Below, piece after piece: positions 11,675 to 42,817 of a stretch of DNA of 64,000 bases (positions within the stretch are counted from its first letter, which is position 1; every line of letters starts with the position of its first letter). A program made the translations under genes and the position numbers. A model generated the notes under the pieces. It was given only the letters and a program-made list of their open reading frames with translations, was not told the origin of the DNA and did no database searches. The stretch comes from Rhizophagus irregularis. Lineage: Eukaryota. The stretch is taken from positions 3,968,001 through 4,032,000 of the forward strand of contig NC_089432.1 in the NCBI RefSeq assembly GCF_026210795.1, written 5' to 3'.

Positions 11675-11723
11675 AGTGGGATACCACATGCAATATAAAT
11701 TATATTGCATGTGGTATCCCACT
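11675..11723. repeat. Left terminal 49-bp palindrome (hairpin)
   Basis: AGTGGGATACCACATGCAATATAA-A-TTATATTGCATGTGGTATCCCACT, perfect 24-bp arms. Confidence 0.95.
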
Positions 11724-11739
11724 TATCCTAGATTATAGT

Positions 11740-14385: not shown

Positions 14386-17300
14386 TAAAGCTCCGCATGA
14401 GCCAGCTTGAGCCGAGCTAAGGTCTGGCTTGGGCTTGGCTCGAAAAAATGTACTGAGCCAAGCCGAGCCGAGCCACAAATTCTTATGGCTCAGCTCAATA
14501 TGAGCCGAGCTATAATAATTCTTAGCTCGAAACAAATGAGCTGAGCCGAGCTTCAATAAATTTTGGCTCGAGCCAAGCTGAGCTCGAGCTACTATTTGTT
14601 TATAATTTGTATTTATAATTGACATAATTATGTTATTTATGTAGAATATTTTTTATTTATTTTTTATTTATTTATTTATTCAATTTTTATTTATTTAATT
14701 TAAAATCTAATTTAATTAATAAATTATAATTACCGGCACACATTTTTTCAACATTTATTTGTTAATTTCACTTCCGTCTGACCCTTTCCGTTATTCAGAC
14801 TACTATTATGAGCAATTATCAAGTCTACTATTTTACTTTATCATTAAGTTTTACCCTCCAACCTTTCATACATAATTACCGCTTCAGAATGTCCAACAAG
14901 CAACCGAAACCTAGTTATCCCGGGTTCATCTAAAGAGTCCGGCAACCTAAAGAAAATAGTAGAAACGTTAGTACTTTTCTTCTATATATTAAAAAAAAAT
15001 TACTCCCCAATTCCCGCTAACATATACTTGCACACATTCCAAATCCGGACCTTCCAAATCTAAAAAAAAGAATCAAAATGTTAGTAACGTTTCGTTAAAT
15101 TATAAGAAAAAAATTATTTCGATTACCTTCAAACATTAGAAGCCGGTCCGTCCCTACAAAAAAAGAAAGGTAAAGAACGTTAATAACGTTCTTGTAGTTC
15201 TTGTATTGAAAAACCCTCCCTTTCCTCACATTACCTCAAGAAGCTGTGTGCCGAAAGATTCGTTCCTACTTCCTACAAAAAAGAAAAGAACAGAACGTTA
15301 GTTAACGTTCTTATATTAAAAGAATTATTAATATAATATCTCCCCCTGTAACTTACCATTTTATGGAATTCCAAGTCCAGGAAAAAAATAAAAATAAAAT
15401 AAAAAATTTAACGGTATAATAAGATTGTTTGAACGAAAAAAAAATTTTTTTAAAAAAAAAATAAAAATGAATAACGGTTTAAAATAAAGAAACCGTTTAA
15501 CGAAAAAGGAAAAAAAATAAACCCGTTTTTTTTTAATAATAAACCTAAAAAATATACAAAGCGCTACAAATTTAATGTATAAAGTTGAAGGAAGGAAAAA
15601 AAAATTAAGATTATCGATCGGTAAATCGGATCGATAAGTCACATGTAAAGATGTACCGTAATATTAATTTTGACTGTGAAACTGAAAAGTAACTGTGCTA
15701 AACTAATTTTGGTAGCTAAACTAATTTTAGCTAAGCCAATTTTATTAATTTTCCGTGTCTTAATTATTTAAAAGTAGTTATCGTCTGTATGGAAAAAAAA
15801 AATTCGAGTTGATAATTTCAGTTATCATCCATGCAAAATAATCCAACTTAAGTCATTCTTTTACGGGTTCTTTTTTGACGGCTTTCTCTTAAGATAAAAA
15901 GATTTATATATCCGAATAATGTCCAACCCTTCTTCACCTATTCCCGTTCCCACTCCTATTGTTGAACTTGAAGCGAATACTAATTCTTCTTCAAGCAGCA
16001 AAAGATCCCTTGTTTATCAATTTTTTACTTATAAGTCTCCAAAATATTATTGCAACTATTGTCCTAAGAGTTTTTCAAACAAATCAACTTCTACGTTATG
16101 GCGTCATGTAAATAAACACCACCCAAAAATTGTTGCTGAAACTCAAAAACAAGAGGAAAAAATCGGTGAAATGGATAAGTTCGTAATTTCTGATCAAAAA
16201 GAAAATGTAAGTTTAATATTTATTTTAATACCATATTAAAGATCCTTATTATTAATATATCAATATAATTATATCATTTTTTTAGTTTAGCCAAAAAGGA
16301 TATAGAAAAAGATTGATTCGTTGGGTAGTTAATAATGATCAACCGTTTAATGTGACCGAAAATAGGGAATTTCGGGACATGATGACATTTATTCGACCAG
16401 GTATGCACATTCCCTCTGCTGATACTATACGACGAGATTTAACTGAAAACTTTAAAACTTCAAAAGATGTATTTAGACAACAACTGCAGGTTAATAACTA
16501 ATGTTTATATGTAATGATTTTATATTATATGGGTATTAAATCAATCCAAATAAAAACAATAGGAAGCACCCGGTCGCCTATCTTTCACAGTGGATGCTTG
16601 GACCAGCAAGAATCAAATTCCATTTCTTGGGATAAGTGTTCACTGGATAAATGACAAATGGGAATTAAAATGTACTACATTGGATTTTTGTATTTTATCA
16701 GGATCCCATACTGGAGCTAATTTATCACAAAGATTTTTAGAAGTCCTTCAAGAGTTTGGTATAACAACAAAAGTAAATGTTTAATTGTTTATTTACAATT
16801 TATATTTTTTTTCATAATTAACTAATAATTGTTTATTCTTTATTGTATATAGATTTTAGCAATTGGATGTGATAATGCTTCCAACATGGACGTGATGCTA
16901 GAAAACATTTCGCAGTCTTTAAAATTACAAAATATAATATTTGATCCAAATAATCATCGCGTCCGATGCCTTGCACATGTTATAAATTTAGGCGCAAAAA
17001 AATTAATAGATCATCTTTATGTGACTAATAAAATATCATATGAAGATGAAAATACCTTTGAAGTATCCGAAGATAATGATGATAATTTGAAAGATGCTAT
17101 ATATAAGGTAATAAATATTATTGCAAAAATACCAATTTTATAATTGCTAATTGTTTAATTTATTAAATTTAAAGCTTCGCAAGGTTATAGTAAAAATTAG
17201 AGCATCTCCACAGCGCCGAGAAAAACTTAAGCAACAATGTATTGCTGCTAATATTAAACCACTTGAACTTATCCCGGATGTGTCAACGCGATGGAATTCG

Positions 17301-18880
17301 ACTGATGACATGATAACACGTGCATTGGAATTAAAACAAGTAATATTAGTTTTATTATTTAAATTTTTTTAAAAAATTATTAAATTTCTAATTAATAATT
17401 AATTATACAGCCTCTTCATAATACCGCATCAGCTGATAAAGATTTAAGAAAGTATATACTTTCAGAAGAGGAATGGAATTGTATTTTAGAAGTACATGAG
17501 ATATTGCAGGTTAGTTATTTATTGATTAATAATATACACGAAAAATAATAAAAAAAATATTTTCAAGAAATTAAATCTTTTTTTATCTTTTTATTTACAG
17601 TGTTTTAAAAAGAGTACTAATTTTAGCACTGGACAGCAATATCCAACGTTATCGTATAGTGTTCCTATATACAACTATTTGCTAGATAAGCTTGAAGACG
17701 AGTATGAAAAAAAGGAAAGTGAAAAAGGCGAAGAGAATGAAGTTGTAGTAGCATTAAATGAATCAATCGAAAAAATAAAACAATATTATGCATTTACAGG
17801 TGCATTAGTTTATACAGTAGCAACAGGCAAGTTTATCATTATCATTATGTCTAATTTTATGATATTTAAATATTAAATTTATTTCTTATAATTTATTACT
17901 AAATAGTGATGGATCCTCGCCTTAAACTTCAATATTATAGGGATAATAAATGGGAGGAATCCTTTATTCAAGAAGCCAAAAAACAAGTTGTTGAATTATG
18001 GAAGTCAACGTATAAAGTAAATAGTGCAGATAATGAAGAATCACATGATGATGATGATGAAATTTTCGGTCATATATTTAAGAAACGGAAATTAAATAAT
18101 GATGAATTAAGTATATACTTAGATGAAAAAATAATTCCCGGAAAAACAGATATTCTTGCATGGTGGAAGGTATATAAATAATATTATTTATTATATTATT
18201 ATTTTATATTATTAATGTTATTAAATTAATTTTTATAGGCGCACGAAGTGGAGTACCCGAATTTGTCTAAAATGGCGCGTGATTACTTATCTATTCCAGG
18301 TTAATATATATATATATATCAAAATAGTAAATTACCGATCAATAAACTATTATTAATTATTTTATTTATATAATTTATTATTTTTATAGCCACTAGTGCA
18401 CCTGTAGAGCGAATTTTCTCAGGTGGCACCGATTTAGTTGTTCAAAAACGTTGTAGTCTTAAAGATGAATCAATTCAAAAAGTAATGTGTCTTAAAGGAT
18501 GGTGGAAATCGGGTTTTGGTGGAATAACTATTGTAAATGATTAATATAAAAGTAAAATTATATCTATTGTTAGTTTGATTATTAAATGTTAAATTTTAAA
18601 TAATAAATAATAAAATAATAAAATAAACAATATTTTATATCAAATTTTAGTAATTTAAAATCGAGCCAGCTCGAGCTATTTAAGCCAAGCTTATTATTGG
18701 CTCGAGCTTTTTTGAACTGATTTATTACCGGCTTGAGCTTTTTGAGCTGAGCCTATTACCGGCTTGAGCTCTTTTCAAGCTGGCTCGTGAGCTACGAGCC
18801 AATTTAATTATGGCTCAGTTCGGCTCAGCTTGAAAAGCTTGAGCCAGCTCACAAGCCAGCTCGGCTCATGCGGAGCTTTA
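14386..18880 (+). mobile_element. hAT DNA transposon nested in the primase-helicase gene
   Basis: TIRs TAAAGCTCCGCATGAGCC / GGCTCATGCGGAGCTTTA; 8-bp TSD CCAAGAGC (14378-14385, 18881-18888); subterminal GAGCC/GAGCT repeats. Confidence 0.95.
15919..18544 (+). CDS. Multi-exon hAT transposase with BED zinc finger
   Basis: CNYC..LWRHVNKHH, DAWTS, CDNASN, RCLAHVINL, DVSTRWNST, DPRLK, WWK..YPNLSKMARDYLSIP, ATSAPVERIFS; GT-AG introns between ORF pieces. Confidence 0.9.
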
Positions 18881-21800
18881 CCAAGAGCTTAAATCATTCA
18901 CCGAATTAGTATATACCTTAACTGGGGAAAAATTTGGCAAGTTTATTGATCAGAATCTATCTGGTCATAATTTTAACCTTCGCCTTATTGGTTCGGCAAA
19001 AAAAGGTCACGTGAAACGAATTCTTCAGTTTTCACTAGATAATGGGTGGAATGAACTCGATCACGTTAGAGTCCAACCACCTACTAACTTAGGCCTCGAA
19101 GTAAGACCCCGGCTACTTAGTGAAGAAAAAAATAACAACCCACTAAGGATAATTGTAAGTCAGGATGTATTACAAAAATGCGCGAACTTAGTTTTGCAAA
19201 AGCATTTTAACTATCTTAGGAATTGGACTATCGAAGAAAAGGATTCACAATACTTCGTATATTTTAACCGGAAAGCTTCACTAGAATGTCCACTATGTAA
19301 ACATATACATGACAAGGATCAGCGGTGGTTCGGACATGTATCTGCTAGTGGTACATTTATTGTGAAATGTTTTCGGCAAAATAGTGATGAACCTGGGGAA
19401 GTTTTTGAATGCGACCCATCTATTGCGGAAAAAATTCAGCAAAAAAATAAAAATATATCTTCGGCGCCTAGCAAGATAAAAGGCTTAGGTTTTCCTAAAG
19501 CCTTCTTAAAATTCCCATCTTGGGTTAAGTATAATGAGCCCCTTTCAGCGACAGAAATATATGACGAGAGATATGTAAGACCATTACCGGATGAAGGTGA
19601 TATCTATGTAGGATCGCCTTGGGAGACGGGAAAAACATATGTTCTCGAGCATCTTACTATATCTGACGATGTGAATTTGCTAGTATTATCTACGCGCCAC
19701 TCTTACTCGAATGCCGTCACTACAAGACTCAATCTCAAATCATATTGCGATATCGATAGTAATATAAATCTACCTGATCATAAGAGGGTAGTATGTCAGA
19801 TAGAAAGTTTACACCGTATTACTAATAATTGCAAATGTAATAAAAAATGTAAATGTTCTCCAAGCCAATATGATTTATGGCTTGATGAAATAGTATCTAT
19901 AATTGCTCAGGCACAAGGTCATTTGGCGGGTCAATCAATAGAGAAACTATATAAATTAATCCAAGAGGCTAGGCGTATTATCGTCATGGATAATGATCTT
20001 ACTGATCTAAATATCGAATGGATTAAGGCCCTTCGCAAGGATAAACTATTCTCAGTTATCCACAATACTTATCAACCACAGGAAGGGAAAACATTCCGCC
20101 TAGCCTCTAATAAAGAAACTGTGTTAGCCGAACTTTGGGATTGGGCTAGGAGAATATCTTCACTACCTTCTGATAAACGAACAAGTGCATCACTCATCTG
20201 TCATCTCAGAAAGGATGTGCAAGGGATCGTTCGTGCTCTCAAGACCGATTTTCCGGAATTGAGGATCAAAGAATATCATGGTAAATCTGATCCAGAAGAA
20301 AAGGCTAACGACTTCAGTAACGTAGAAGAATCATGGAGCAATGTTGATCTAGGTGCGTATACAAGTACTTTAAAAATAGGAGTATCTTGCACTAATCCCA
20401 AGTTCGAACGGGCGTTCTGCATCTTTAACAGTTATATAGAAACGAACGCTGGAACGAATCAGATGCTATTCCACATGCGGTGCATTAAAGATTATATATG
20501 CCATATCGAACAAAGATCTTCTAACGTCCCCATTACAGAAGATGGGTTATTTCGATGGTTGTTGAATGCTAAACGTGAATGCCTCCCCCGAGAACTCCAG
20601 AATAGAGGAATATTCCCAGATGTAGATTCTATTATCCGGAATAAGGACGTACCAACTGTTCGATTATGGGTGGCATTCATGTTGGAAAAATTCCGTTCCC
20701 GAAGATTATTTGGTTGGAGGATGGTTGATTTTCTCCGAAATGCAGGTATGGTAATTTCTATCATAGAACTTATGCCTAAACCTAAAGATAATACGATATC
20801 ATTATCCCAGACAGTAAGGGTGAGTTCATCTATCATTAAAGCAGAAGAAATCTCAGATATATCAAATGCCCGTATTCTTGATCATGAGATAGCTGAGGTT
20901 TTGGAAAATAAGCCGAAGAAGACTTTAGAGGAAATGCAATCTTTAGACCGGCATCATATTGTAGAATGTTATGAGATTCCGCCTGAATCATTGACCGAAG
21001 AATTCATATCGAAGTATGGGAATTATAATCATATGAAATGGTTTAGAGCTTATAGACAGTTACGGGACGCTGGCACTGATAATGAAACGGCTGTTGAGGC
21101 TATTACCCGTAAAGATTACAGAGAGGATAGACTCGCAACCGTGACCCGAGCTGAGAGACATAGTATCTGCTTGGAGTTGCTAAGAAATTGTACACCCGCT
21201 AAAGACGTTGACGATAGAGCACGATATAAAGCTGATGATGTTAGAACGCGCATGAACTCTCCTAAATCGATATTATATCTCCAGGATTTAGTACCCAAAA
21301 TGGCTCGAGTATTTGATAATACAGATGCATCGCGCAGAGCTAAAAAATCGGGATTGAAAACAGATCGGGCAAAACTTGGTTTATTAAATGCATCACTTTA
21401 CGCAACTTATGGATTAAAATTTAAGGCTATAGATAAGAATTGTAGACATTACCACCTAGTAGGTTCATTTGATAGTAAAGATGCTCCTAGATTACCTTCA
21501 TATCAAACGGGCGAAGAAATTTATTGGGTAAATGGTGAAGATACTCGGTATGGGTATAGTAAACTCCCACCCGATGAATTGATATTAGATAATTTTACTA
21601 GCTCTAGCAAAGTGGATAATACGCAAAATACAGAAGATATTCAGGACTTATTTGATATATGCTAATACCATTCGATTACGTATCAGGTAAGTGAAGGCTT
21701 CTGCCATTTTTATATAATATAATTCCGCAGAAGCCTTCATTTTTCGGCATATATTATTAAAAAAATATCTCTAACTTTGCGTCACTCTGGCCAGGATATA

Positions 21801-21913
21801 TAGTCACATATTTTGAGACGTGGGCTTCTACCAAAATTTTATATAATAATCGACTAATGAATGATATATTTTTTTTGCTTACTTTCCTAGTGCTCTGAAT
21901 TTCGAGTTAACCC

Positions 21914-22350
21914 CTAATCCCCAAATAGACCTAGACCTATATCCTCATCATCTGACTCAGAAACCGGAGCTTCATAGATTCTGGGTTGAAGGGGTCTAGC
22001 CACATCACTTAGCTCGAAAATTGGAGCTTCAGGGATTCTGGGTTGAAGGGATTCATTCCCATCACCCAGTTCGAAAATTGAAGCTTCAGGGATTCCGAGT
22101 TGACGGGTCTCAGCCTTATACTTCTGCCTCATTCGATAATTCAGTGCATGAAACTTTGCAGAATATTTGGAACAATATTTGGCGCAATACCTGAATCAGC
22201 ATCAGTAGGAAATCTACAAATAAGGCAGGGTCTTTTTTTCATATTTTTTTCATATAATTTCCAGTGCCTTGCACAGCCAGTAATACGAGTACTGACTCTT
22301 CCACAAATGGAACCATCTCTCTTGATATGCGGGCAAGTAACACGATCCAT
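21914..22350 (-). pseudogene. Small Cys/His Zn-binding protein with repeated acidic C-terminus (apparently frameshifted)
   Basis: CPHIKRDGSICGR..GCARH and CLIC motifs; adjacent ORFs 22141-22350 and 21914-22132 with an LQPRIxEAP repeat. Confidence 0.45.
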
Positions 22351-22465
22351 GTACAGTAAGTATTTTAGGATATAAAAGCCTTTTCACTTTTAATTTTATA
22401 ATAAAATGTATATTTAAATTATTCGGTATTAAGATAAGTCATAAACGACTTTTCATACTAACGCC

Positions 22466-22969
22466 ATGGACATATCAGGCCAATTGACAGAATACGAGCC
22501 CGCTCACGAAAAAATCTATAACCCCAAATCTAATCGCATGATAGTTATAAATGGGCCAGTGTATCGTAAATTATTATGTGGTGGTTATATCCATTGGAGA
22601 GAAGAAAGGCTTTTGATTCCGCCTTTACATGAATTACCAATATTAAGAAGATATCTTTCTTTCATTTCATATCGTATCTGGAACATTGTATCGGAAAGAA
22701 GTTTACTAGCAGTGGTTAACGAAAAAATAAGCCTATTGCAGATTTTACTCAAAGCTAATTGGCATGATTTTACTTTATGTCAACTATTAAAATTATGCTG
22801 GGAGCGTGAAGAGACGAAAGCTTGGAGGAGTAATGTACTCATGAAATTCCTCCATCATCTGAATTTAGCTCCTTTAAAGTATAGACCGGGAGCTTTATGC
22901 GATGCATTTATCAAGACAGATGTTTTAGGGCCGGAACATATATTAACTCTAGCACGAACGTTTTACTAA
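22466..22969 (+). CDS. Hypothetical protein with an N-terminal NPxS/TxRxI..GxxYxxL motif (2-cysteine-adaptor-like, known from large DNA viruses)
   Basis: IYNPKSNRMIVINGPVYRKL; intronless 167-aa ORF. Confidence 0.5.
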   Translation: MDISGQLTEYEPAHEKIYNPKSNRMIVINGPVYRKLLCGGYIHWREERLLIPPLHELPILRRYLSFISYRIWNIVSERSLLAVVNEKISLLQILLKANWHDFTLCQLLKLCWEREETKAWRSNVLMKFLHHLNLAPLKYRPGALCDAFIKTDVLGPEHILTLARTFY

Positions 22970-23294
22970 ATATTACTATAACATTTTGGTCTTAGATCAT
23001 TCATAGCCTTGGAATGGGGGTTCCATGACTATGTATTTTTTTTCGCATATCCTATCTACCCGCAATTTTCAAATGTTTGCAGAGAAAACCCGGCCATAGT
23101 GGGTGGATTCACGTAGTGAACACTCAGCATAAGCTATATTATTATTTTTCGCTCCTCCAATCCTCCGATAGCTTTCACCGACCATGAGGTAGTGAAATGG
23201 GGGAATATTTTTTTCGAATTGAACTTTATCCCACTTAATATAATCTGAATACCACAGATTATCTAACTACTACATATAATCTACATACCACATA

Positions 23295-24443
23295 ATGTCT
23301 GCAATTACAACCAAGTTCGTTACAGACCACCAGCTTACCAATGAGATGAGTATCGAAGAGCTCAGTCAGTATGCGCCAGAAATGCGTGACCTCTTGGGAG
23401 ACGATAGAGAGAAAAGGCGCCAGGCCCGTAATCGTCTTCAAAAAGGGTATAAATTTAGCAAAGAACAGGCATTTGCATTGATTCCTGACCAGAGAAATGG
23501 GCGGTATATAAGTCAAGTACCGATCCTAGAGGAATTAGGATTAGCGCCTTCAGAAGCTGAAGTTAATATAAGCCTAGTATCTGAGAATACCCCAGAAGGG
23601 GAGACTATTAAAGAAATAGCTCAGCGCATTGTTCGGGATAATCTTAGTGAAAGAAATGTAAAAACGATATCAAGAACCTTAGTCGAAACGGCCTCTGATC
23701 CTATCATTGCCTCATCACGACTCTCCAGGCTTCAAAGAGAATTGCGGAAGCTTAACACCTCGGAGGCGATAATCTCTGCCACCAAGATTTCGGAGATAAC
23801 CAGAGCATCTAATAAAATCCAACAGAAGCGTACTGAGCAACGTAAAAATGAAGGACTCCATTATCCAGACCACTTCTCGTTAGAATCGGTTAAGGAACGG
23901 CTAGATTTATATGTTGTGTCTAACACACCCGATAAACAGGCCCTAGCTGATGTAATGATTATGCTCTGTATCCGCCCTACTGAAATTAAAAACTTGCGCA
24001 TAGCAAATGGGGGCGTAACGGGATACGCAAAAAACCGAGGCCAACAGGATGTTCCTCGGGTGTTCAGATCGCTGGAAAAAAATGAGGAGCGAGCAAGGCA
24101 ATTGCTTACATGGATTCAGGAAGCAATTTCTTCCAGACAGTTAAGAGATCCAGGAAAACCTGGATCGACATACTTAAGTTCGTTTCTGAAAAAAGAAGAA
24201 TATATTCCTAAACCTTATGAGCCATTACTCCCTAGTTCCTTGCGCAAATTAGGGGCGGTATTTGCTTTGGTAGTCCATGGGCCTAAAAATCCGTCAAAAG
24301 CCAATACTTATGCCAGTGAAGCCCTTCGACATTCGCCGAATAACCATGCTTCTCCATCTGATAGATATACTATAGTTAATTTCAGAAGGAGGGGGCAACC
24401 TTATGATCAAGCAAAACCATTCTGGATTTCTGATGAAAACTAA
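23295..24443 (+). CDS. Tyrosine recombinase / telomere resolvase (protelomerase)-like protein
   Basis: Candidate catalytic residues in YR order: MLCIRPTEI (R), GYAKNRG (K), PSSLRKLGAVFA (R), EALRH (H), SDRY (Y); intact 382-aa ORF. Confidence 0.65.
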   Translation: MSAITTKFVTDHQLTNEMSIEELSQYAPEMRDLLGDDREKRRQARNRLQKGYKFSKEQAFALIPDQRNGRYISQVPILEELGLAPSEAEVNISLVSENTPEGETIKEIAQRIVRDNLSERNVKTISRTLVETASDPIIASSRLSRLQRELRKLNTSEAIISATKISEITRASNKIQQKRTEQRKNEGLHYPDHFSLESVKERLDLYVVSNTPDKQALADVMIMLCIRPTEIKNLRIANGGVTGYAKNRGQQDVPRVFRSLEKNEERARQLLTWIQEAISSRQLRDPGKPGSTYLSSFLKKEEYIPKPYEPLLPSSLRKLGAVFALVVHGPKNPSKANTYASEALRHSPNNHASPSDRYTIVNFRRRGQPYDQAKPFWISDEN

Positions 24444-24565
24444 TCACATACTGTATATGGGTTAGAGGGTCGGGAGGGTTAGCAAAGCTAACCTGATATC
24501 ATTTATTAATTTTTTTTCGCTCGAGGCAAGATCTAGCATATAGTATAATACAGTATATCACGAAA

Positions 24566-25075
24566 ATGGTAACCGATCAAAATAATTTATCTGATAGTAC
24601 GTCCACTGAGCAGGAAGTTATCAGATATACGAAGATATTAGCCCAGACACTTGGACTAAATGAGCAAAATGCAGAAGTATATAGTGCGCTTTCCAGTGAA
24701 AATAGGGCACTAAAGAAACAATTGGAAGATTATTATTCCCAATATAACACTTTAGAAAAGAGGGTAGAAAGACTGGAAAAAGATGTAGGATCCTTAGAAG
24801 ACGAATTGGAAAATCTGGACGAATATGTAGTGGAAGATCTGGATGAATGTGTGGATAGGGAAACTGTGGTTGACATAATACATGAAATAGTTCCCTCGCT
24901 TATTGGTAAAAAAGGGTCGAGAGGCGCTGTGCATAGAGGGAGTTCCTCCTATTCGTCTGAATCTTCTGAAGGATCTGATTCGGTCGAGACAAATGTGATA
25001 AGAAAGAGCGAGGATATCCCTCATAAGCAACGAAGGAAGGCACGACCGAGAAAGGTTAAGCAGATTGTAGTTTGA
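24566..25075 (+). CDS. Coiled-coil hypothetical protein with basic C-terminus
   Basis: Heptad-rich LEKRVERLEKDVGSLEDELENL; intronless. Confidence 0.6.
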   Translation: MVTDQNNLSDSTSTEQEVIRYTKILAQTLGLNEQNAEVYSALSSENRALKKQLEDYYSQYNTLEKRVERLEKDVGSLEDELENLDEYVVEDLDECVDRETVVDIIHEIVPSLIGKKGSRGAVHRGSSSYSSESSEGSDSVETNVIRKSEDIPHKQRRKARPRKVKQIVV

Positions 25076-25146
25076 AGTGGGTCGAGTCAGGCACTTTGCA
25101 TATTTTTTCAGTCAAAGTTATTAAGTTTAGCATATAAATAATCAAA

Positions 25147-25437
25147 ATGGAAAGTGATCAAAAGCGTCTAACAGCCTTAACCAATATCCCGCCTAAGTCT
25201 ACTTCATCTGAGAGTAGTTCATCTAAATCAAGCTCATCCGAGACTAGTTTGTCTGAATCTAGTTCGTCATCTGAGAGTAGTTCCTCCGAGACTAGTTCAT
25301 CTGAATCAAGCTCATCTGAGTCCAGTTCATCCGATTCTGATATTGATGAAATAGTAAACATGATTAAGCATCAAAGGATTCGGGAGCGCCTAACCCAAAA
25401 GAAAGATCAGGAGAAAAACGCATATAATAAAAAATAA
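25147..25437 (+). CDS. Ser/Glu-rich small protein resembling the low-complexity tail of the element's Gag
   Basis: (SSSES)n tract; compare the Gag tail at ~45180-45300. Confidence 0.5.
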   Translation: MESDQKRLTALTNIPPKSTSSESSSSKSSSSETSLSESSSSSESSSSETSSSESSSSESSSSDSDIDEIVNMIKHQRIRERLTQKKDQEKNAYNKK

Positions 25438-25474
25438 GGCTAATTAGCTATCCGATAAATGCCAGTCCAGAGCG

Positions 25475-25975
25475 ATGATAGAGGTTTATTTTTTATATTT
25501 GGATATTATATATGCCATAATAAAAATGGTATTCGTGAATTGTGTAGTCGAAGAAAATATTCCTATTGAGGCATCAATTGATACGAGCGCCAATGTAAAT
25601 TGCATTAGCCAAAAACATATTGGTGAATTAGGAATTACATATCACAGTGAAAGCAATCGTATTGAGACTCCGGATGCATCCTATTCTACATTAGGAAAGG
25701 TTGATCTGCATATCGGCTTTAATGATAGCAAGAAACATAAAAGCACACCCGTTGAATTCATAGTTCTTGGACTGGAGTGGTCGGGACCTGATTTAATTTT
25801 AGGAGGACCTTGGTTTCAAGAAAATGGTGCAACTTTGGATATATGCAACTCAAATCTATTATTTGACAATAATTTTGCGATCCCATTCAAAGAAGTAGAC
25901 TATATTTCGACATTATCTGATAGTCAAATCCGAGCTATGACGGATTTTCCCAGTCCAACCTATAGTCCGGAGTGA
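25475..25975 (+). CDS. Retropepsin-like aspartyl protease (second copy; likely start at MVFVN)
   Basis: ASIDTSANVNCIS and DLILGGPWF motifs. Confidence 0.75.
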   Translation: MIEVYFLYLDIIYAIIKMVFVNCVVEENIPIEASIDTSANVNCISQKHIGELGITYHSESNRIETPDASYSTLGKVDLHIGFNDSKKHKSTPVEFIVLGLEWSGPDLILGGPWFQENGATLDICNSNLLFDNNFAIPFKEVDYISTLSDSQIRAMTDFPSPTYSPE

Positions 25976-26037
25976 TCGTGTATTACTAGCCTTATTTTTT
26001 TCTGATCGAAAGGTATTCTAACTATATAAATAAAGCA

Positions 26038-26463
26038 ATGCATACAGACAATTTACTTGATCTTCTTCCGCCGGAGATAATATCATTTATTCTAAAGTAT
26101 CTTCCAGAACAGGAACTAAAGAATTCTCGCAGTATAAATAATATATGGGAAAGAGAGGCGAATCTTGAATGGCACAAAAGGATGGAATTTTTATTTGGGA
26201 GAATAGTTCAAGGCAATTATACAGTAAAGGAATATTATTCGAAACTGAAAGAGTGTAATTTAAGCAAAGACTATCCAGAATGGCTTTTTAAAAATCTATT
26301 CATCAGAGGATTATCACCTGAGAATAAATTTAAAGTTCGTTTGGATGGGCTATTACTACTTTCGTTAGATGAGATAGTGGATGGACAATTAGTACTTTCG
26401 TTAGATGAGATAGTGAAAAGGCTTAGTTCGGAGCAGGCCGAAGGTGCTTTGCATGATCATTAA
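26038..26463 (+). CDS. F-box protein fused to a Gag capsid-like (MHR-region) segment
   Basis: [23 protein letters not shown] (F-box) followed by [30 protein letters not shown], which aligns with the element's Gag. Confidence 0.75.
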
Positions 26464-26510
26464 GCTTAGAGAATTTATTTTTTCGATTAAAGATACAGCA
26501 TATATTATTC

Positions 26511-27593
26511 ATGGCATATTCAAGTATTTTTAATATACCAGAACTATTAGAGCAGGTTCTATATTTCCTAGCAGTAAATAAGACATTGTATCCTGCCCTA
26601 TTTGTTTGCCGGCTTTGGTACAGATGCGGTGGTCCTATTTTATGGAGACGCATTGAGCTAAAGGGGAACGAAGTAGACGATAGATCTCGATTGGAAAGAT
26701 TTTTTAAAATAGTACGTGGAGGAGGAAGACCAGTTTATAGCTCAAAACTAACTCATCTCAAAATATCGGACTATCATTCACTTTCAAATAAAAAAATCAA
26801 AGGCATTATGCATACTTTCCAAAATATAATACATTTAGATTTTGGAGGGAGTATGAAGCCTGAGTCTATTGGTAAAGTTCTAAAGCTAATAGCAGAATCA
26901 TACCCGAATTTGAAGTATCTTAATATATCCGCTTTATGCAGTGGATTTGGAAATGATAAAGGCCTATGTGCAATCGCGAATTCATGTTATAAAATAGAAT
27001 GTCTAAATATTTCTAGACGTACAGAGTTTTCTGAAACATCAATTTGTAATGTTATTCGTTCTTGCCCAAGGCTCCAGCAACTCGACCTTAGCTTTTGTCA
27101 TATTACCGATATAACTATCAAAGAAATTACTGGTTCATGTGTTAATTTAAAGTACCTCAATTTGGAAGGGTGTAATAATATTAGCAAAGAAGCCGTAGAT
27201 CAGCTCATTTCACTTAATCCAAATATTCATGTCGAGAATTTTGTGCCGATTCGGGTACCTCCCCAAAATAATGGAGCTTTAGATGTAATCCATGGACTTG
27301 CAAGGCAACTGGGAATACCACATGATGAGCCAAGAGATGTTGCATCCTTAAATAATTTTATCAATGACGAATTATCAAGGAGATTGAGTGAACGCTGTAT
27401 TCTAGCTAGAACATCGCTCCGGAGTGGTGGTCGGTTATATAACACCCGGCATAGTGTTAATAATAATCAGAATTCGGTCATATCTCAGATACACCGGCAA
27501 CCTAACAGACGATCGCCAAGGATTAATTTCGGTAGAATACTAGCCGATCAATTAGAATGGTGGTACTCTACCGATCTAACTAATCTGGAGTAG
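26511..27593 (+). CDS. F-box/LRR (RNI-like) protein carrying a Gag-derived segment
   Basis: [17 protein letters not shown]; LRRs ([27 protein letters not shown]); [33 protein letters not shown]. Confidence 0.8.
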
Positions 27594-27715
27594 TGATCGT
27601 CAGTTCGGAAGAATTTTTTTTGCTGAGCCACAATGCATGTACTCATGTACGACAGAAACAAGCGATGATTAACCTATTTTTCCGATTGAAAATATTTAAT
27701 CAATCTACTAGCAAA

Positions 27716-28411
27716 ATGTCAGATGATGAGATAGATACCGAGATAGAAGAAGGCTACGATGAATTTATCAAAGAATATGGATCGAGATATGAATGGGATA
27801 ATGAAAGGAATCCTGATGAGTGGAGATACTGGGACGACCTTTTTTGCACAATCAAAACCTACTGGGGGACAAAGGCAGTTAGGAATTGGAAAGAGAAAGC
27901 GCTTAAGCAATTTGTACATAGTCTGCCCAATGTAAGAAATCCATCATCATTATTCCGTGTATTTATACATTCCGATGCTTTCTATCTTCCACATATTTTG
28001 AGTCTGATAGAATTGCCATATTATCCGCATAAACTTCGATGGGAAATATGGCCGGAAGGTATTGAGAAGTTCCAATGTAGATTGTTTATTCAAGGTGAAG
28101 AATCAATAGTGGATTACTGTTTAAAGGCGAAGAAAAGTAATGATATCATCAAACTCTGTAAAGGTCATTTTAGAAGTGAATTCTATAGTGGATTAACACG
28201 AGAAAATATGAGATGTATTGCAAAAAATATTTATTATCGTGAATTGGTAGAAATGCTTATTCAGGCAAAAAAAGAATCAGTTACTGGTATTATAACTGGG
28301 TTTAAAGATTATATTAGTCAGTCCGGTATTGCTAATCTGAATGGGGTACAATACTTATTGAGAGGTATACATTGGATAACTAACCCGAGCGAAGGTAGTC
28401 CGGAGCAGTGA
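27716..28411 (+). CDS. Hypothetical intronless protein flanked by ~85-bp direct repeats
   Basis: ATG at 27716 (MSDDEID..); repeats at 27581-27668 and 28396-28478. Confidence 0.6.
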   Translation: MSDDEIDTEIEEGYDEFIKEYGSRYEWDNERNPDEWRYWDDLFCTIKTYWGTKAVRNWKEKALKQFVHSLPNVRNPSSLFRVFIHSDAFYLPHILSLIELPYYPHKLRWEIWPEGIEKFQCRLFIQGEESIVDYCLKAKKSNDIIKLCKGHFRSEFYSGLTRENMRCIAKNIYYRELVEMLIQAKKESVTGIITGFKDYISQSGIANLNGVQYLLRGIHWITNPSEGSPEQ

Positions 28412-28987
28412 TCACCAGCTCGGAAGAATTTGCTGAGCCTCAATACATGTACTCATGTGCGACAAAAATAGGCGATCACTAGACAGGGTTCGTGTAACAT
28501 TAATTTTGCATATACATTCGAAAAGAAAACATATTAACCTTTATTCTTTATTTTTCCCAAACAAACATGAGAAAAATATGAAAGAGCGTCTAGTTGCAAC
28601 ACAGGACCAGCTCTAAAAGTAAATATTAACGTCAAAAGCATATGTTATGAAGGGCTGAGGGACTCACATTTTCGAGATCGCCAGGCGTAAGACCAACTAT
28701 GCGTCTCTCCGGTAGATCTCCATGTGAAAAGGTTTGAAAATTCTGTTTACATGTGCTTTCATAGAACTCTTGGCATCAGACGACAATACTAATTACGCCT
28801 CATACCTCCTTAACTTCGGCTTGGCGCTCTTTTTCCCAGCAAGATATAAAGCATGTAGGGGTATGTGGAAGTTCAGCCAACTTTCCGCAAAAATTTACCT
28901 GTAAGTGCTTCGCTAAGGTATGTATATACCAGAAGTTATGTATGTGTGGGAATGAAAATCTCACTATGGGCTTTGTATTTAGGAAAG

Positions 28988-29347
28988 ATGCCTTCTATTC
29001 GTCTTAACTGCTTTCTTCGTGGTGGAACCGTTAATAACATTTTCGATGTAGAAATTGATAATAATTTGTCTGTTGGTGCTCTGAAAGATCAGATCAGAAA
29101 TGTCCGGCAAGACTTACGTCAAGAAAACTTCGATCTATATGAAGTTAATTTTTTTCAGCCCAATTTTTCCATAGTCTCTTCTGTAAACAGTATTGCGATT
29201 AGACAAGGAGTGTTTATGGTTCCACATAGAGAAATTTCTAATTATTTCTCTACCTTGCGCATCAATACTCTCATAGAAAGCCCACCTTACTTTCAAGAAA
29301 ACGGTGAAAGGGGTGTTATTCACGTCCTCATATACCCTCAAGATTAA
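28988..29347 (+). CDS. Crinkler (CRN) N-terminal ubiquitin-like domain protein
   Basis: LNCFLRG..IFDVEI...SVGALKDQI...LYEV...IHVLI. Confidence 0.65.
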   Translation: MPSIRLNCFLRGGTVNNIFDVEIDNNLSVGALKDQIRNVRQDLRQENFDLYEVNFFQPNFSIVSSVNSIAIRQGVFMVPHREISNYFSTLRINTLIESPPYFQENGERGVIHVLIYPQD

Positions 29348-29591
29348 TAATTATTTTTATATCATGTAATGCGATCCATTCGCAATTTTTATGTATTGTA
29401 GGCCGGGTTCCGGCAACATTTTATTTCATAAATAAAGTATTATTATATGAGTAAGCGGGTCACGTGTATGTCTGTACTACATAAAAACCTATATTAACAC
29501 TTACGTTCCCACCAGAAATACAACTCTATTTTTTCTCCGAACGTAACACTATTTTTATCCGAGCCAATTATCCCTATAAAAACGTAACGCT

Positions 29592-30892
29592 ATGTCAACT
29601 GTCACTCTCAGTTGTTTGGTCGTAGGAGAAAACCCTTATGAAAATGCTTTCAACGTAAAAGTTAATAAAACAGAGGCGGTTAGTGAACTCAAGGACGCTA
29701 TCAAGGAAAAAATTGATGATAATGTTAAGGCAAAAGACCTCAAGCTATGGAAGGTCGACATTTCCTTCGAAGAAGAAAACGAAAAACTTAAGCTCGTCAA
29801 CACAAAAGTAAACGTTAATATCAAGGAGGAGCTTGGTGGCGTGGAACTACTTCCACTTTCGAAGATTAGCAAACACTTTCCTTCCCAACCAGCCGACGAG
29901 CACATACATATAATCGTACAGCGTCCTGTTGAAACGAAAGAAGTCCACTGTACCGCAACGTATGGGCGTAAGAGTGCGAATTTTCAATGGACAGTGACCC
30001 GAGAAACGGTGACGTTGGAAGGTTTTAAGAAGAAGCTTTGTGAATATTTAACCTTTCCGGATGGGACAGAGAACGAGCACATCGTAATAAGTCGTGTGAT
30101 AGGTGGCGCTGGTTTGAAGAGAAAAATTTCGACAGGTAAAATGCGTAGAAAATCAGATTCAAGTTCCCAGAGTTCAACGGTAGAAAGTGATACGGTTGAG
30201 ATCGTGACAGAGCGTAAAGTTATTCAGTTTTCTGCCGATGAGGACTTAATGAGTATTATCTGGACTACTAACCCCAAGGTGGATCTGGAAATTGTTGTGG
30301 ATACGTGTAAGTACTATCTAGATATTTAGGATATTCACGTGCCGATTCTACCAAATGTCTGATCAGTTAATTTATGCATGACTGTTTTGTAGCGCAACAA
30401 CCTTTCTCTTCGTATACTTTCCCAAAGATGAAGGCAGTCTTCGGCTTGAAGGCAGATGATTATAACGGATTATCAATTTTTGATGGAGGTGTCAAGGATA
30501 CTCCGAAAGAGATTCGAAGTTTGGTTATAGAAGAATTATTGAGATTACACAAAACATCCCAACACATCACTAGCGCCAATGAAGCCACTCGTTGCGAGTT
30601 TATTTCTCGTATTATTTACGGTGTTGCATCAATCTTTGATGGTGAGGTGAAAGTCTATCCCCAATACGAAATTTCTGGAAGCCATGGCAAAGGACCAGTT
30701 GATTGTGTCATAAAAGTGGGAAATACAATCATCACAGTTACCGAGGCGAAAAAAGAGGACATCAATCAAGGTATTGCACAGAATGCAGTCCAACTGCAGA
30801 CATCCATCCAGCGCAATCCTAAAAAACGTAGTTACGATACAGCAGGTTTACATTATGTTATGCGCAGTAAGACGTCATTGAATTACCAGTAG
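29592..30892 (+). CDS. Crinkler-family protein, intron-containing, with a PD-(D/E)xK-like C-terminal domain (3' end possibly truncated)
   Basis: LSCLVVGENP..AF.V...VSELKDAIK..LKLWKV..HIHIIVQ; intron ~30307-30392; GPVDCVI..VTEAKK. Confidence 0.8.
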
Positions 30893-32672
30893 ATCCTGCT
30901 TCTATTGGTTGGAAGTGTGAAGAGTCTTCACGATTATCATATGACACAGCATGTATTTAGGGAAAAAACTAGAATAGATGAATATCGTTCGAAAAAATAA
31001 TCGTGTATAATAAATAGTCTAAAGTTATAGAATGGCATCATATACTCAGGGCTAGCCCCACATCATGCAATTTATTTTATCTTAATGTATTGCAAATAAA
31101 AAACGTTTAGGCCACTAAGTGACTCGAACAATGTAGTCAAATATTTTTCTCGTGGCGATTCAATGTACATACAGTACTAATTTTTTATTACTCGCATGTT
31201 AATACAGGTAATTTAGGAAATCTGGATCGGCAAATTATTGGGCAATAAGATTGTCGGCGAAGATCCAGGGATTTTTATTCTCAAACTTTCTCGCATATTC
31301 TCAAAATTATTACGTATATACGTATATTATTGTAAAGGACCCCTTGATGATCTTTACATATGGATAGCGTTAAATTCTTTTATTATTATATTAATGAGAG
31401 TCCGTTGATCAGATTTTCGTGATGCGCTCATATTAACGTAATTTCCCCCAAAAGTGTATAACAAAATCGATCCTGCAAATTATATAAAAAGGTGAAGTCT
31501 TAGTTAGTGAACTCTTTTATCCGCCTTGTGCAAGTAAAACAAAATAACAAACGAAACTAATCAAACTTACCGTTATATTCATCATTAATATCCACAATCA
31601 ATCAAACGCGCAAAGTAATAATAAGGTGGGTTGATTATTGATTGGCTAGATTCCGGAAGAACGTCATCACGATATTCATCGATTTTCCCGCCTATATAGA
31701 TGCTCAAAAATAAAATGGACGTATTACCTTTCTTGATTCGTTGAGAAAATCGGCACGTGTCTAATCAAATTGCTGTGGCTTAGTATTTTCACCTGATTCT
31801 TGACACATGCCTCGAAGTCTGGCGCAGTATATCTAATAAAATTTTAATCATAAAACAATTCCCCGGTGATGGGATATTATCTAATCTAATCAGCACCATC
31901 AGCGCAGTAAAATTGTGACATGTCTTATATCAACATCTGGCGCAGTAAAATCAAGAAACAATCTTTCGATCCAAAAAACATTAAGCAATAATTTTCTCAA
32001 ATATTTGGCGGAGTGGAATGCTACAAAAATGAATTATCATGGTAAAGATTAAATGAATTGTAACGTTAAAAATTATGGGCATATACTTATTTCTATTCTC
32101 TGGTTCTATAGGTTCGAAATTAATATATCATGGAAAAGTTCTCTTACGGAACCTAATCTTTTACATAGTCTATGTGAGTGGGAGTGAAATTAGTGATATA
32201 GATAGGCGTAGTTATGGGTATGATAATTTATTTCGGAAATCTAGTGTAGTAAAAGAGTATGAGGTGAGAATCTCGTAGTTAGCAAAGTAGATAGGCGTAT
32301 AGATAGAGAAATAATTTTATTAGCTATCGCTATAGATATTTTTCGAGCAAAGAAATAATTTGATGCTGGGACTCCCTAGGATCCGCGTAATCCCTCCCTC
32401 TTTGATAGCATCATTTATTTCATTTATTTCATTTTGCTATATCTGATAATCATGAGTATGTAATCAAAATATTTCACTATGACTAATGATACGATGTTGA
32501 GTTCAGACTTAATCAATGAAGTTTAATAAAGTTTATTCAGACTTACAACGCGTTCATATATTCAATGAAGTTTAATAAAAGTTTGTTCGAATCACATATA
32601 TAATCAATAAAACTCTCTTCAGAAAATTTTTTCTTTTTTAAAGTTTATCTGTTTCCTAACTTACAAAATAAA

Positions 32673-33835
32673 ATGTCTAATAATACAAGTACTATCTTTA
32701 CGGATATTAACAGTCTTTCTTTCGATATTAAAGAAAAAGCAGACATACTCCATTTTTTCACTTATAACGACACGTCTGAAACGGATAAAGTGAAAACAGT
32801 TCTGTCAACAATTGAAGAAGACAAAGTGAAAGTTGAATACTTGAGGAGATGTATCAAACAAAGAGGTAAGGCTTTGCGTCGTAATGATTGGTCATGACGC
32901 GTCCACAATTTCTTGTCCAGTAACTAATTTTGCTTTTTTTGGTCTCCTAACCCAATTTAGATGAACATCGAGGTAAGCCTTTGCGTCGTAATGATTGGTC
33001 AACTCGAACGTGACGCGCTAACCGGTTTTATTTTTAGTACACAAAGTGCATGCTAAGGAAGAGAAAACTTTTCGTGTCCAATGTTACAACGACGAAGGCG
33101 AGCCATTAGACAAATTTGAAGAATTTACAATGCATGATGAAAATGGTTTTCGCGAGTTTTTAAAGAGAGTGGATGCAAGAGGGTTGAAACATATCGATGA
33201 TAATAATGAAGTACCAAAAGTCATTTCGACTTTTGAAGGCATTCAACCTAATCAACTTTATTGTATAAGTGCTGCGTATCTCATGGCCATAAAGAAGGGC
33301 GTAACGTGGTCGAAAGTTGAAGACATGGTGGTGGAGATTGAAACAACATCGGCTTTAAAAAACAAGCTCAAAAAAACATTTAAGTCTCCTGTTGAGGTCT
33401 TTAGCCGAATAATGCATGATGAAACAGGTAATCCCATAATGGAATGGGACGGGATATTATTATGTCGTGACAAAGTATTTTTGTGTGAATGCAAACACAA
33501 AATAACAGAGGTAAATATAAAAATGATTAATTTGATGTAACTCTCATGAATCTGTTGAACAAGCTCATTGATCAATCCAACATTTTTAGGAAAAGATAAA
33601 CGAAATTGTTGAACGATTAAAGGAATTCCCCGAGAAATTGAAGAAGGCAAAAGATCCCGAATTCAAACAATTATCGGATAAAGAACTAGTTGGAGTCGCT
33701 TGTGGCTCGCTTTTTCCAGAAGAATTAAAACGAAAATCTGTGGAGCTTGGATTGGTAGTCGTATATCCAGACGGTGGTCGTTATTCTGTAGGAATGCCCA
33801 AAAAATGGATGATGAGCTTGTGTAATTTCGTGTAG
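32673..33835 (+). CDS. Multi-exon protein with a restriction-endonuclease-like (PD-(D/E)xK) domain
   Basis: EWDGILL..FLCECKH motif; GT-AG introns between ORF pieces. Confidence 0.6.
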
Positions 33836-34847
33836 TATTAATTATGATGATAAGAGAAGTTACGTCTTTCTTTAAATATCATATTATATTACATTGTAGT
33901 AAACAGATTTGTACTTTACCGCATGAACATTGCTCTATAAAATTTATTTTATCGGAGACTTAATCATATGATCTTCACAATCGTACATAGTTATTTTATT
34001 TAATAGTGCGTAATTTACTCACATCAGGCTTGCATTTTCATTACATAGTGTAAAATATTCTATTTTTTTACAGTAGCATCAATATCAAAATTAGCCAGGT
34101 ATATTGATCAATTTGCAAAGTATATACAGTATTTACTGCGCTACACAATGAACTCGGTTCGCAGAATATTGTATTTTTGCCGAAAGAATAGGGGTATGAA
34201 TCGCATATATTCACATTTATTTTCTTCCTGCCGAAATGTTATTCCATCTCGAAGTCTTACCCACCAGATATCAAATAGGACCACGACATACCGTAATGTG
34301 AAAAGTGCCGGTGAGAATACTGAAAAAAGTTCCGAGCATTAACGGTTCGGTTGTATCCTTGACCATAGTCCAAGAGTATCAGCCCGTGTATCGCTGTGTA
34401 TCTGTAAAATGCTGTATGACGAATAAAAATCAGTCAAAGGCACTCAGGTTGAGGGATCCGCAAACTAATATAAAATAATTTGCATATGCACAGCCGGTCG
34501 AATAAAAATGAATCTGATTGGTCGATCATCTCGTGATTTATGGAAACTCGCCAGCGCCTAGAACTCTCCCAGAACTATCGAGGAACTGGTAAGGATTTAG
34601 GGGGGATCTCATGTGATACAATATACAGTACATCATACCACAAACTGATTTAGCCGAAGATGCTGTGCATATGCATGTAAATATAAAATCCGAAGGGATA
34701 TAAATCCCGATATGCTTGTAATCGAATATTCGAATAAAAATGAATCTGATATTTATTAGAGTATACTATTGCCAAATCAGCTATAAATCACTAAATCGCT
34801 ATAATTTGCTATAAGTCTTATTTATTGTGCATATCCAAGTGTATTAA

Positions 34848-35700
34848 TATGACAAGTGTGATTAAATCTCCACTAGGCGGTGGTTTTGAGGGTACTTATG
34901 AGGAGCATATCGAATATATTGGTATGCGTTGTATCTTCGATACTGAAACTCCGTCTGAATGGAGAAATAGGATTTGGGATCGCCTAATGTATTTTCGAAA
35001 TAAAAAATATTATACATTTGGTGAGAAAGACTGCTTTTATGCTCGCAAAGCATCATCACATCTTGTTGATGGACAAAAAATCTATCCATTTTGTGGAATG
35101 GCTATCTGTTACTCATGCAATGAACTTATATATCTTGGAATAGAACACTTGTCAGTTGGTGTGAGATGTGTTTATAACGCATTGGAGGGTAAGTTCATAA
35201 CTGAGAAATTCAGAGACATTAGCTTTAATGGAACACATTGGGGTATGTATCAACATTGGGCCACTGCTTGTACCGGAAATAGGTTTTGTAAACTAAATTT
35301 CAAAGAATACATGGAAATGAAACAGCGGATCCCATTGGACAAGTGGATGAGCTTCCATCAATATGATTTGCAGATAAATCAATTTGGTAAATTCAGGCGC
35401 AGAGGACCATACACTAGTATAATTGATAATAACTATATCCTAAAAAATTTTGGCATTTATGCTGAAGAAAAACTATATAGTTATGCTTTATGGTTAGAAA
35501 ATGTCAGCAGAAGGATTAGGCGCATTAGACAGAGATGTGCTTTTCTAAGTGCTCCAAATTGCAAGAGTAATACAAGCGAACTATATATCTCTTCTCTCTT
35601 TGCAAAACAAAATAACTTATTACCCCTAAACTATAATCTCAATCATCCAAAAGGCACTGCAATGAGGTTGAGAAATGGGACAGTAATCAAGTTTGTCTAA
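34848..35700 (+). CDS. Hypothetical intronless protein with CYSC motif
   Basis: Long ORF; no family recognised. Confidence 0.55.
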
Positions 35701-35814
35701 CTGATTTGACCAGCATTAAGCACAACTGATTTCATTCTTGATATATAACTATTCACATAATTTATTGGACATGCATTATATAATATATTTTTTTCGAAAA
35801 GTTCAGGAAGATCA

Positions 35815-36444
35815 ATGAAACGCTCTTGGGGATTCTTGATTGTGAGACAATATAACTATCAGTTTGAGAATTTCTATGCAACAGTTATCCAGCGAGCTTA
35901 CAGGAATTACAAGAAGAGACCTGAATCTTTGGCAAAACGAATTTGGGAGGCGGTGAGGAATGATGATACTCCTAATAGATGGAAGTATTTAGGTATTATT
36001 CCTCGTGATGAGTATTTTTATTATATTAATGGGGAACTAATAAAATTTAACATGAAAATCTATTGTTTAAATTATCTATATGGGCTCACCTTATATGGTG
36101 CTAGAACTTGGGCAGAAGAGAAACGAGAACAATTAGCGTACCGATTAAATTGGTTAAGCATTGAACCTGTTAAAAAATTATTACAGCAAGAAGGTTATGA
36201 ACTTCTTTCTGGTGTATTTGAATGGCCTATCATGGTAAAATGGACACAGAATCCCAAATATTATCTTGATACTGAAGAAAATCGCATTTTTAGGTATTTT
36301 GTTAGAAAGGACATGTTGGGACCACGTGACATAGAATCCATAAAATCCCATAGTCGGCTAACTAGTGACTGGTGGTATAAACCTAAAGTATGGTTAGAAG
36401 ATTCTCAAAACAAAATAATGGGCATATACGGTGCTAATCAATGA
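35815..36444 (+). CDS. Hypothetical protein with IQ-like motif
   Basis: ATVIQRAYRNYKKR. Confidence 0.55.
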   Translation: MKRSWGFLIVRQYNYQFENFYATVIQRAYRNYKKRPESLAKRIWEAVRNDDTPNRWKYLGIIPRDEYFYYINGELIKFNMKIYCLNYLYGLTLYGARTWAEEKREQLAYRLNWLSIEPVKKLLQQEGYELLSGVFEWPIMVKWTQNPKYYLDTEENRIFRYFVRKDMLGPRDIESIKSHSRLTSDWWYKPKVWLEDSQNKIMGIYGANQ

Positions 36445-39621: not shown

Positions 39622-41122
<1,501 letters not shown>

Positions 41123-41146
41123 TCAAATTTCTTAGTGAAATTTCGC

Positions 41147-42817
<1,671 letters not shown>

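Follow-up and report, generated by a model that had tools for sequence, protein, structure and literature searches.

A mobile element in the genome of Rhizophagus irregularis, a fungus that forms arbuscular mycorrhiza, carries two adjacent ORFs (A and B) that each appear to join an F-box to a piece of Gag, which raises the question of what such fusions would do for the element encoding them. The original prediction, made from the letters of the 64,000-nt stretch analysed here (the window), read them as adaptors of SCF ubiquitin ligases using self-association domains of the element's own Gag as bait, either against Gag or against host factors that recognise it. We find that the F-box-Gag fusions are real and conserved, and apparently undescribed. 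The features discussed are collected in Table 1.

Table 1. Positions in the window of the element, its F-box cassette and its Gag-protease gene
Feature	Position	Strand	Description
Host element	11674..56753	.	45 kb, virus-like, mobile
Terminal inverted repeats	11674-13645 and 52370-56753		~2 kb each, 99-100% identical
Two short ORFs	24566..25437	+	Coiled coil plus Ser-rich; Ser-rich
Stand-alone retropepsin-like aspartic protease	25475..25975	+	Element's second protease copy
ORF A	26038..26463	+	141 aa; F-box aa ~5-50, Gag CA-CTD aa ~51-135
ORF B	26511..27593	+	360 aa; F-box ~10-49, LRRs to ~245, hairpin ~246-293, further C-terminal segment
Gag-derived helical hairpin in ORF B	27246..27390	+	~45 aa
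Third cassette gene	27665..28411	+	Diverged CA-CTD-like segment aa ~135-182
Gag-protease gene	42867..46208	+	Three ORFs in this copy
Gag ORF 1	42867-44423	+	Coiled coil and CA-NTD
Gag ORF 2	44432-45337	+	CA-CTD, hairpin, Ser-rich region
Gag-protease ORF 3	45672-46208	+	Protease

The element is flanked by the 5-bp target duplication ATGTT (the norm for Polintons/Mavericks is 6 bp) and its termini read AG...CT. A hAT transposon interrupts the right terminal inverted repeat (TIR), and ORFs 13605 and 51730 share similar starts because both begin within the TIRs. The family B polymerase (PolB) is split over three ORFs. Its top PDB matches are 8ywg and 9l8u (E 1e-93), the former of which we take to be the polymerase of African swine fever virus, followed by archaeal and cellular alpha/delta polymerases. 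Furthermore the element encodes an A32 packaging ATPase (Pox_A32 above the Pfam cut-off), pieces of an origin-binding helicase/primase and a DDE integrase; the latter was recognised by motifs read from the sequence, has an internal stop and gave no rve match in a Pfam scan. In the C-terminus of the integrase (41147-42328) there is a nuclease-like domain matching HNH/homing endonuclease families of PHROG. PolB, long TIRs, a target-site duplication, the retroviral-like DDE integrase and the A32 ATPase are shared with Polintons/Mavericks. Unlike in these, the PolB is by its PDB matches not of the protein-primed type. Sequence-profile scans of element ORFs with Pfam and PHROG gave no match to a capsid, jelly-roll or other. 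The element is also distinct from LTR retrotransposons: its ends are inverted repeats and not LTRs, a Pfam scan gave no match to reverse transcriptase (RT), and its six frames contain no YxDD-type motif.

With its TIRs, 5-bp target duplication, asfarvirus-like PolB, A32 ATPase, integrase and Gag-protease, and with neither RT nor a detected jelly-roll capsid, the element appears to be of an undescribed type, of which we found no account in the published literature. Asfarvirus-like polB loci of R. irregularis known as 'fundsbetaviruses' (PMC7017919) likely belong to the same polB family, and each R. irregularis genome is given 15-33 polB copies (PMC10640383); the available parts of both papers describe no TIR-bounded element, Gag-protease gene or F-box cassette. 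A recent 'Maverick' expansion appears in the accessible text of PMC8647823. Elements of the present type may account for these lone polB copies, 15-33 in a genome, and a retrotransposon Gag may serve such a DNA element as its capsid. In this copy the genes for PolB, Gag, integrase and primase are broken and A and B are intact, yet the TIRs are 99-100% identical; possibly the copy is non-autonomous and was moved in trans. The element also contains intron-bearing Crinkler-domain genes and two insertions of hAT-type transposons (28952-33540, 38196-39090, 15919-18181 and 53045-54931). A 382-aa ORF (23295-24443) has an R...RK...LRH...Y spacing reminiscent of tyrosine recombinases or telomere resolvases, for which Pfam and PHROG scans gave no support, and an 18-bp repeat resembling the TIR repeat is located just upstream of it (23220-23312).

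As judged from a predicted structure, the element's 'Gag' is a genuine capsid-type Gag. The AlphaFold model of its relative P0370 (pLDDT 82.5) matches the PEG10 CA-like CTD with a TM-score of 0.79, an rmsd of 2.0 A and E 0.005, and relatives of the element Gag match Retrotrans_gag. A zinc knuckle is absent from the Gag of this copy and present in other members of the family. In the P0370 model two helices (residues 331-342 and 356-370) form a hairpin, and the Gag segment found in B corresponds to the stretch between the CTD and the zinc-knuckle position of these other members. The Gag polyproteins P0253, P0247 and P0271 have a capsid of another type than P0241 but a coiled coil, hairpin and protease in common with it; the capsid domain has been swapped. 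Named homologs come from arbuscular mycorrhizal fungi (Rhizophagus, Glomus, Gigaspora, Acaulospora, Entrophospora, Diversispora and Paraglomus).

The predicted architecture of an F-box followed by a Gag-derived domain is borne out in both ORFs. Residues 53-137 of A align with residues 26-109 of the Gag ORF 44432-45337 (31/92 identical, 34%, E 9e-8). A profile-profile comparison gives a probability of 97.8% (E 7.6e-13), and a Gag-only HMM finds the CTD of A at E 5.4e-12. None of 2000 shuffles reached the observed score of 86 (null mean 31, maximum 60). The F-box of A lies below the Pfam cut-off (18.0 versus 24.3 bits), and 29 of 49 A-family members have an F-box-like Pfam match at E<=0.01, again below the curated cut-off. 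Core F-box residues and residues resembling the major homology region are at least 90% invariant in the family. In a model of A (mean pLDDT 82.1) the three F-box helices are predicted at pLDDT >90. Foldseek with this model returned the PEG10 CA-like CTD in its top four rows (probability 1.00, TM 0.66-0.72, E 0.06-0.14) and HIV CA after them, with no row at E<=0.001 and no F-box structure among the rows shown; for the predicted models of A and of the Gag relative P0370 alike, the structure matched best is that of the PEG10 CA-CTD. No significant match came from PDB sequence searches with the alignments of A and of Gag, an ESM Atlas search with A gave no usable match, and in viral contigs scanned with A, its alignment and Gag no relatives were found. 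ORF A is intact and carries a 12-aa tandem duplication missing in most relatives, the usual length being 121 aa.

ORF B is likewise intact and matches the solved F-box/LRR proteins FBXL2 (E 2.8e-21), FBXL17 and Skp2; its F-box reaches 23.5 bits, below the Pfam cut-off of 24.3. Residues 225-292 are identical to Gag residues 124-191 at 30 of 68 positions (44%, E 3e-13), and the DNA at 27246-27390 aligns with 44864-45008 over 145 nt without gaps at 72% identity. Here too 0/2000 shuffles reached the observed score (137; null mean 34, maximum 58), which settles the significance of both alignments, a check the original prediction had named. Three residues common to Gag, L39, R50 and L71, occur in 36/36 distinct B tails, a set selected by a Gag HMM and therefore biased towards Gag-like residues.

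Both fusions recur in several fungal species. We found 129 A homologs among 231 candidates; F-box and CTD are both kept in 102 of the 120 listed, down to about 60% identity, and over 49 A sequences the mean protein identity is 76% for the CTD versus 74% for the F-box. B homologs number 365 among 3672 candidates. The Gag hairpin is present in 40 of 121 B proteins (the 120 listed homologs and the window protein) and absent from 81, so that the search for such fusions in other copies, suggested at the outset, was successful for A and B alike. Another helical segment without Gag match is found in 42 of the 120 B proteins listed. This commonest alternative tail was considered as a second Gag type (BLAST E 0.03-0.05) and rejected, as a profile search gave no confirmation. 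By sequence comparison the B tail is an exchangeable module.

Searching metagenomes with A yielded 18 loci, two of which (L002 and L003) look like one sequence. A B homolog follows A directly at 10/18 loci and precedes it at 3/18. Upstream cassette ORFs are present at 3/18; the short ORFs of 24566-25437 precede A at L003, L004 and L005. A complete intact A ORF is found at two of the 18 (L005 and L007), the other copies having stops or frameshifts or, in several cases, being cut by contig ends. All these contigs are too short to show PolB or TIRs. L011 adjoins a Plavaka transposase.

The original prediction derived both pieces from the element's own Gag, which holds for the lineage of the B tail and not for the CTD of A. 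A hairpin tree (83 sequences, 48 columns) places the 36 distinct B tails, together with three short, probably B-type fragments, as sister to the tail group of the own Gag (98/91). Judged from this comparison the B tail is one capture from the element's own Gag lineage, at a dS of about 0.5. The CTD tree comprises 78 CTDs and 77 columns (15 A-type, 47 Gag and 16 tandem-CTD, with 40 unclassified rows omitted), the A-type CTDs being that of the window and 14 drawn at random from 99. They make up a single clade (100/100) that does not fall within the clade of the own Gag; its grouping with the second repeats of accessory protease-CTD-CTD proteins is weak (86/91, unstarred). A profile of the A CTD scores 29.7 bits against the own Gag, 42.9 against the best other Gag and up to 68.1 against accessory tandem-CTD proteins. 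The separate clade and the low score of the own Gag indicate that A is an old fusion and not a fresh copy of it, and with the best scores going to the accessory proteins and other Gag clades, the idea of A as bait for the own Gag is not upheld. Recurrent independent capture was considered as well; there was no sign of it, as the sampled sequences of either fusion fall into one clade.

The reading we prefer, with a probability of roughly 0.4, is that A and B, members of a conserved accessory gene cassette, are SCF adaptors that bind Gag capsid proteins via their Gag-derived domain and send them to degradation. The F-box of A would recruit the host Skp1-Cul1, its CA-CTD would attach to a Gag at the CTD dimer interface, and the Gag bound by A or B would be ubiquitinated and then degraded. 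CA-CTDs dimerise. Since the CA-CTD is the sole domain of A besides the F-box, it must be the substrate-binding or oligomerising part, and the notion of a self-association domain as bait fits A in this respect. It does not fit B equally well, where the tail is missing from most listed proteins; there substrate binding would likely fall to the LRRs, and the Gag hairpin, optional and exchangeable, would tether B to the Gag of the own lineage. Because the CTD of A is far from the own Gag, the likelier substrate of A would be the Gag of related, competing lineages or CTD-bearing accessory proteins, with copy control of the own Gag coming second. In Ty1, isolated CA-CTDs bind and restrict Gag (PMC8458377, PMC12530519). 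According to the available text of the second paper such factors are subfamily-specific and do not work between subfamilies with Gags of 78.9% identity (PMC12530519). This speaks against a simple targeting of the own Gag by A at 34%. CTD dimerisation, Ty1 restriction and its subfamily specificity together favour an SCF adaptor aimed at CTDs of the Gag family, more likely those of related lineages. For the preferred reading speak the two-domain make-up of A, the conservation of both domains in its homologs, the order of A and B at related loci and the residues that the B tails share with Gag. Against it speak the distance of the A CTD from the own Gag, the many B proteins with another tail, the weak selection on the Gag pieces, the few complete intact A ORFs, the low poly(A) RNA depth and the F-box scores under the Pfam cut-off. 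Complex predictions for A (aa 35-138) with the Gag CTD (ORF 44432, aa 1-110), which were single-sequence runs without alignments and without folded controls, scored 0.44, 0.16 and 0.00 against a mark of 0.34 and count neither for nor against this reading.

A wider form of the preferred reading starts from a third partner. In L016 (175-993), L018 (289-636) and P0224 an A-type F-box is joined to a retropepsin-like domain in place of the CTD, a call that is based on the motif and on weak HMM scores (E 0.01-0.06), with no Pfam match for the domain. Retropepsins are obligate dimers. With this fusion, three partners of the F-box derive from the Gag-protease polyprotein. DNA elements of fungi whose polymerase is asfarvirus-like and whose capsid is a retrotransposon Gag could accordingly encode a set of 'self-bait' F-box degraders (CTD, post-capsid hairpin and protease) that would dock like with like on rival or own Gag and pass it to the proteasome; we regard this generalisation as tentative and somewhat doubtful.

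Among the alternatives the best placed, though unlikely, is that the CA-CTD serves as a dimerisation or scaffold module, in the manner of the SCAN domain of zinc-finger proteins, which is Gag-derived and serves dimerisation. It would then dimerise the SCF or join A to accessory CTD proteins that pick host substrates, with the product of ORF 27665, protease-CTD-CTD and CTD-LRR proteins as candidate partners. Parts of Gag-protease are indeed widely reused, in tandem-CTD, protease-CTD-CTD, protease-CTD-CTD-LRR and CTD-LRR proteins. CTDs with protease and LRR partners and without an F-box (P0344, P0345, P0354 and P0193) speak for such a role, as do the grouping of the A CTD with the second repeats and its top profile scores there. 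That grouping is weakly supported, however, in an alignment of 77 columns, and no tandem-CTD gene is located in the window. The scaffold explanation gains from the third CTD gene in the same cassette. Its CTD-like segment is found by a Gag-only HMM at E 7.7e-4 among 1321 window segments and by a mixed HMM at E 1.8e-6; Atlas clusters with Retrotrans_gag at 0.88 are a lead only, and an F-box was not detected in this gene.

Further observations concern the cassette and its relatives. The accessory proteins P0344, P0345, P0354, P0321 and P0377 combine a protease with two CA-CTDs, have two CTDs, or join these to LRRs. The N-terminal half of the gene at 27665 weakly resembles the region 22760-22951 (E 0.001). 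For the stand-alone protease at 25475, the Pfam matches RVP_2 (E 0.0034) and gag-asp_proteas (E 0.0039) are both under the cut-off. The five cassette genes between 24566 and 27593 are intronless, and each has a run of 6-8 T within 60 nt downstream and an AT-rich spacer. Such T-runs recall termination signals of cytoplasmic DNA viruses; they follow 8 of 18 element ORFs versus a background of 17%, which is suggestive only.

The Gag pieces could also be packaging tags, which we consider improbable. They would co-assemble with the element's Gag into particles and so carry along F-box effectors, which in a new cell or nucleus would bring about the degradation of host defence proteins. The B tail, taken from the tail lineage of the own Gag and placed on a complete F-box/LRR adaptor, has the make-up of such a tag, and RTL8, a truncated Gag-like protein, enters PEG10 particles according to the accessible part of PMC11684626. 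Nevertheless, no particle of the element is known, most of the listed B proteins do without the tail, and A has no separate substrate-binding domain.

Equally improbable is that the Gag pieces, above all the B tail, are a tolerated, functionless patchwork from recombination or template switching. The C-termini of B are variable, and about 20 aa of the A32 ATPase occur in 7 of 108. The element thus shuffles its own genes, so the Gag piece need not be functional; a piece of this size cannot fold alone. In P0202, P0228 and five other B homologs the piece, at most 20 residues long, comes from the Walker B region of the ATPase (window 40340-41098). Purifying selection on the Gag pieces of A and B is weak. 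Pooled comparisons of the window with each locus gave a dN/dS for A of 0.42 in the F-box and 0.63 in the CTD, with decayed and misaligned copies included. In a refined test, 7/18 loci were excluded for being partial, duplicate, frameshifted or of the protease type. For the CTD, shared changes then gave a dN/dS of 0.53 with kappa 1 (P 0.025) and of 0.75 with kappa 3 (P 0.21); a kappa near 3 agrees with the four-fold sites. The value is 0.64-0.99 when all alleles are counted. The F-box of B is clearly constrained (0.46, P 0.006). Changes between the B tail and the own Gag are spread evenly over codon positions (13, 13 and 14; dN/dS 0.62), and among other copies 7/20 tail variants are synonymous versus about 23% expected, numbers too small to test. 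Values for the Gag pieces not significantly below 1, the many decayed copies and missing RNA reads all fit a patchwork. Two poly(A) RNA runs with the same species label, of each of which about a quarter was read and whose strains may lack this copy, gave a depth of 0-0.16 over 25913-27116 (A and most of B) and of at most 1.4 over the B tail, whereas the Crinkler-domain region next to them reached tens to hundreds. Silence is, moreover, expected of integrated elements. Against a patchwork stand the architecture of A, kept in 102/120 listed homologs, the persistence of each fusion as one lasting clade, and the lower dN/dS of shared changes in the A CTD compared with singletons, which are near 1. 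A neutral fusion unique to this copy, the outcome that would have spoken against the original prediction, therefore falls on uniqueness through the recurrence described above, and on neutrality the weak selection still leaves it some ground.

Least probable of all is the alternative named in the original prediction, with host factors that recognise Gag as the target: the Gag pieces would act as decoys and the F-box would remove those factors. An arms race would be in keeping with the rapid divergence and low constraint of the pieces, and a decoy could do without the self-association surface. Nothing in the analysis indicates a host target, however, and we know of no Gag-recognising factor in these fungi.

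If the preferred reading, degradation of Gag by SCF adaptors, is true, relatives would be controlled or excluded by catalytic destruction of capsids, as opposed to stoichiometric lattice poisoning in Ty1, and a capsid domain would be the targeting arm of an E3 ligase. To our knowledge the latter is otherwise known from engineered degraders only. Viral F-box proteins illustrate that mobile elements recruit SCF via F-boxes, and the capsid-binding E3 ligases TRIM5/TRIMCyp that E3 ligases can target capsids; we know of no element-encoded F-box protein with the capsid's own domain as targeting part. In addition, the A and B fusions give a direct test of Gag as capsid in polB-bearing elements. Many F-box/LRR and viral origin-binding genes were born in Glomeromycotina, according to the available part of PMC10234402, and under the preferred reading part of the F-box/LRR genes that in arbuscular mycorrhizal fungi are lineage-specific and unexplained would belong to a mobile element and not to host biology. 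Full-text searches gave no published account of F-box-Gag fusions in these fungi, a negative on which the 820 F-box fusions in the supplement of PMC12062965 may bear. The words 'gag', 'capsid' and 'Rhizophagus' do not occur in the main text of that paper as far as available, and the accessible part of PMC8321522, on co-opted gag genes, mentions neither F-box nor Rhizophagus.

Three known systems can be compared, each as described in the available portions of the papers. Ty1 p22/p18 and Drt2 of Saccharomyces are isolated Gag CA-CTDs that limit the element, p18 being encoded by the element itself (PMC8458377, PMC12530519). p18 is identical to its target CTD, poisons assembly and has no F-box (PMC8458377, PMC12530519), whereas the CTD of A, far from being near-identical to the own Gag, shares 34% with it from a separate clade, is fused to an F-box, is of the Ty3/PEG10 type and belongs to an RT-less DNA element. 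RTL8 is a truncated Gag-like protein that binds the Ty3-type capsid of PEG10 and lowers particle yield (PMC11684626); RTL8 and PEG10 differ in being host genes, and the likeness there concerns the N-terminal capsid lobe without a fused ubiquitin-ligase adaptor (PMC11684626). Finally, Caenorhabditis F-box A2 (with a mariner HTH) and zebrafish F-box::CxC7 combine an F-box with a mobile-element domain, for which a wider substrate range has been proposed (PMC12062965). These are host genes with domains of DNA transposons, whereas A and B are genes within the element and take their domains from the element's capsid family.
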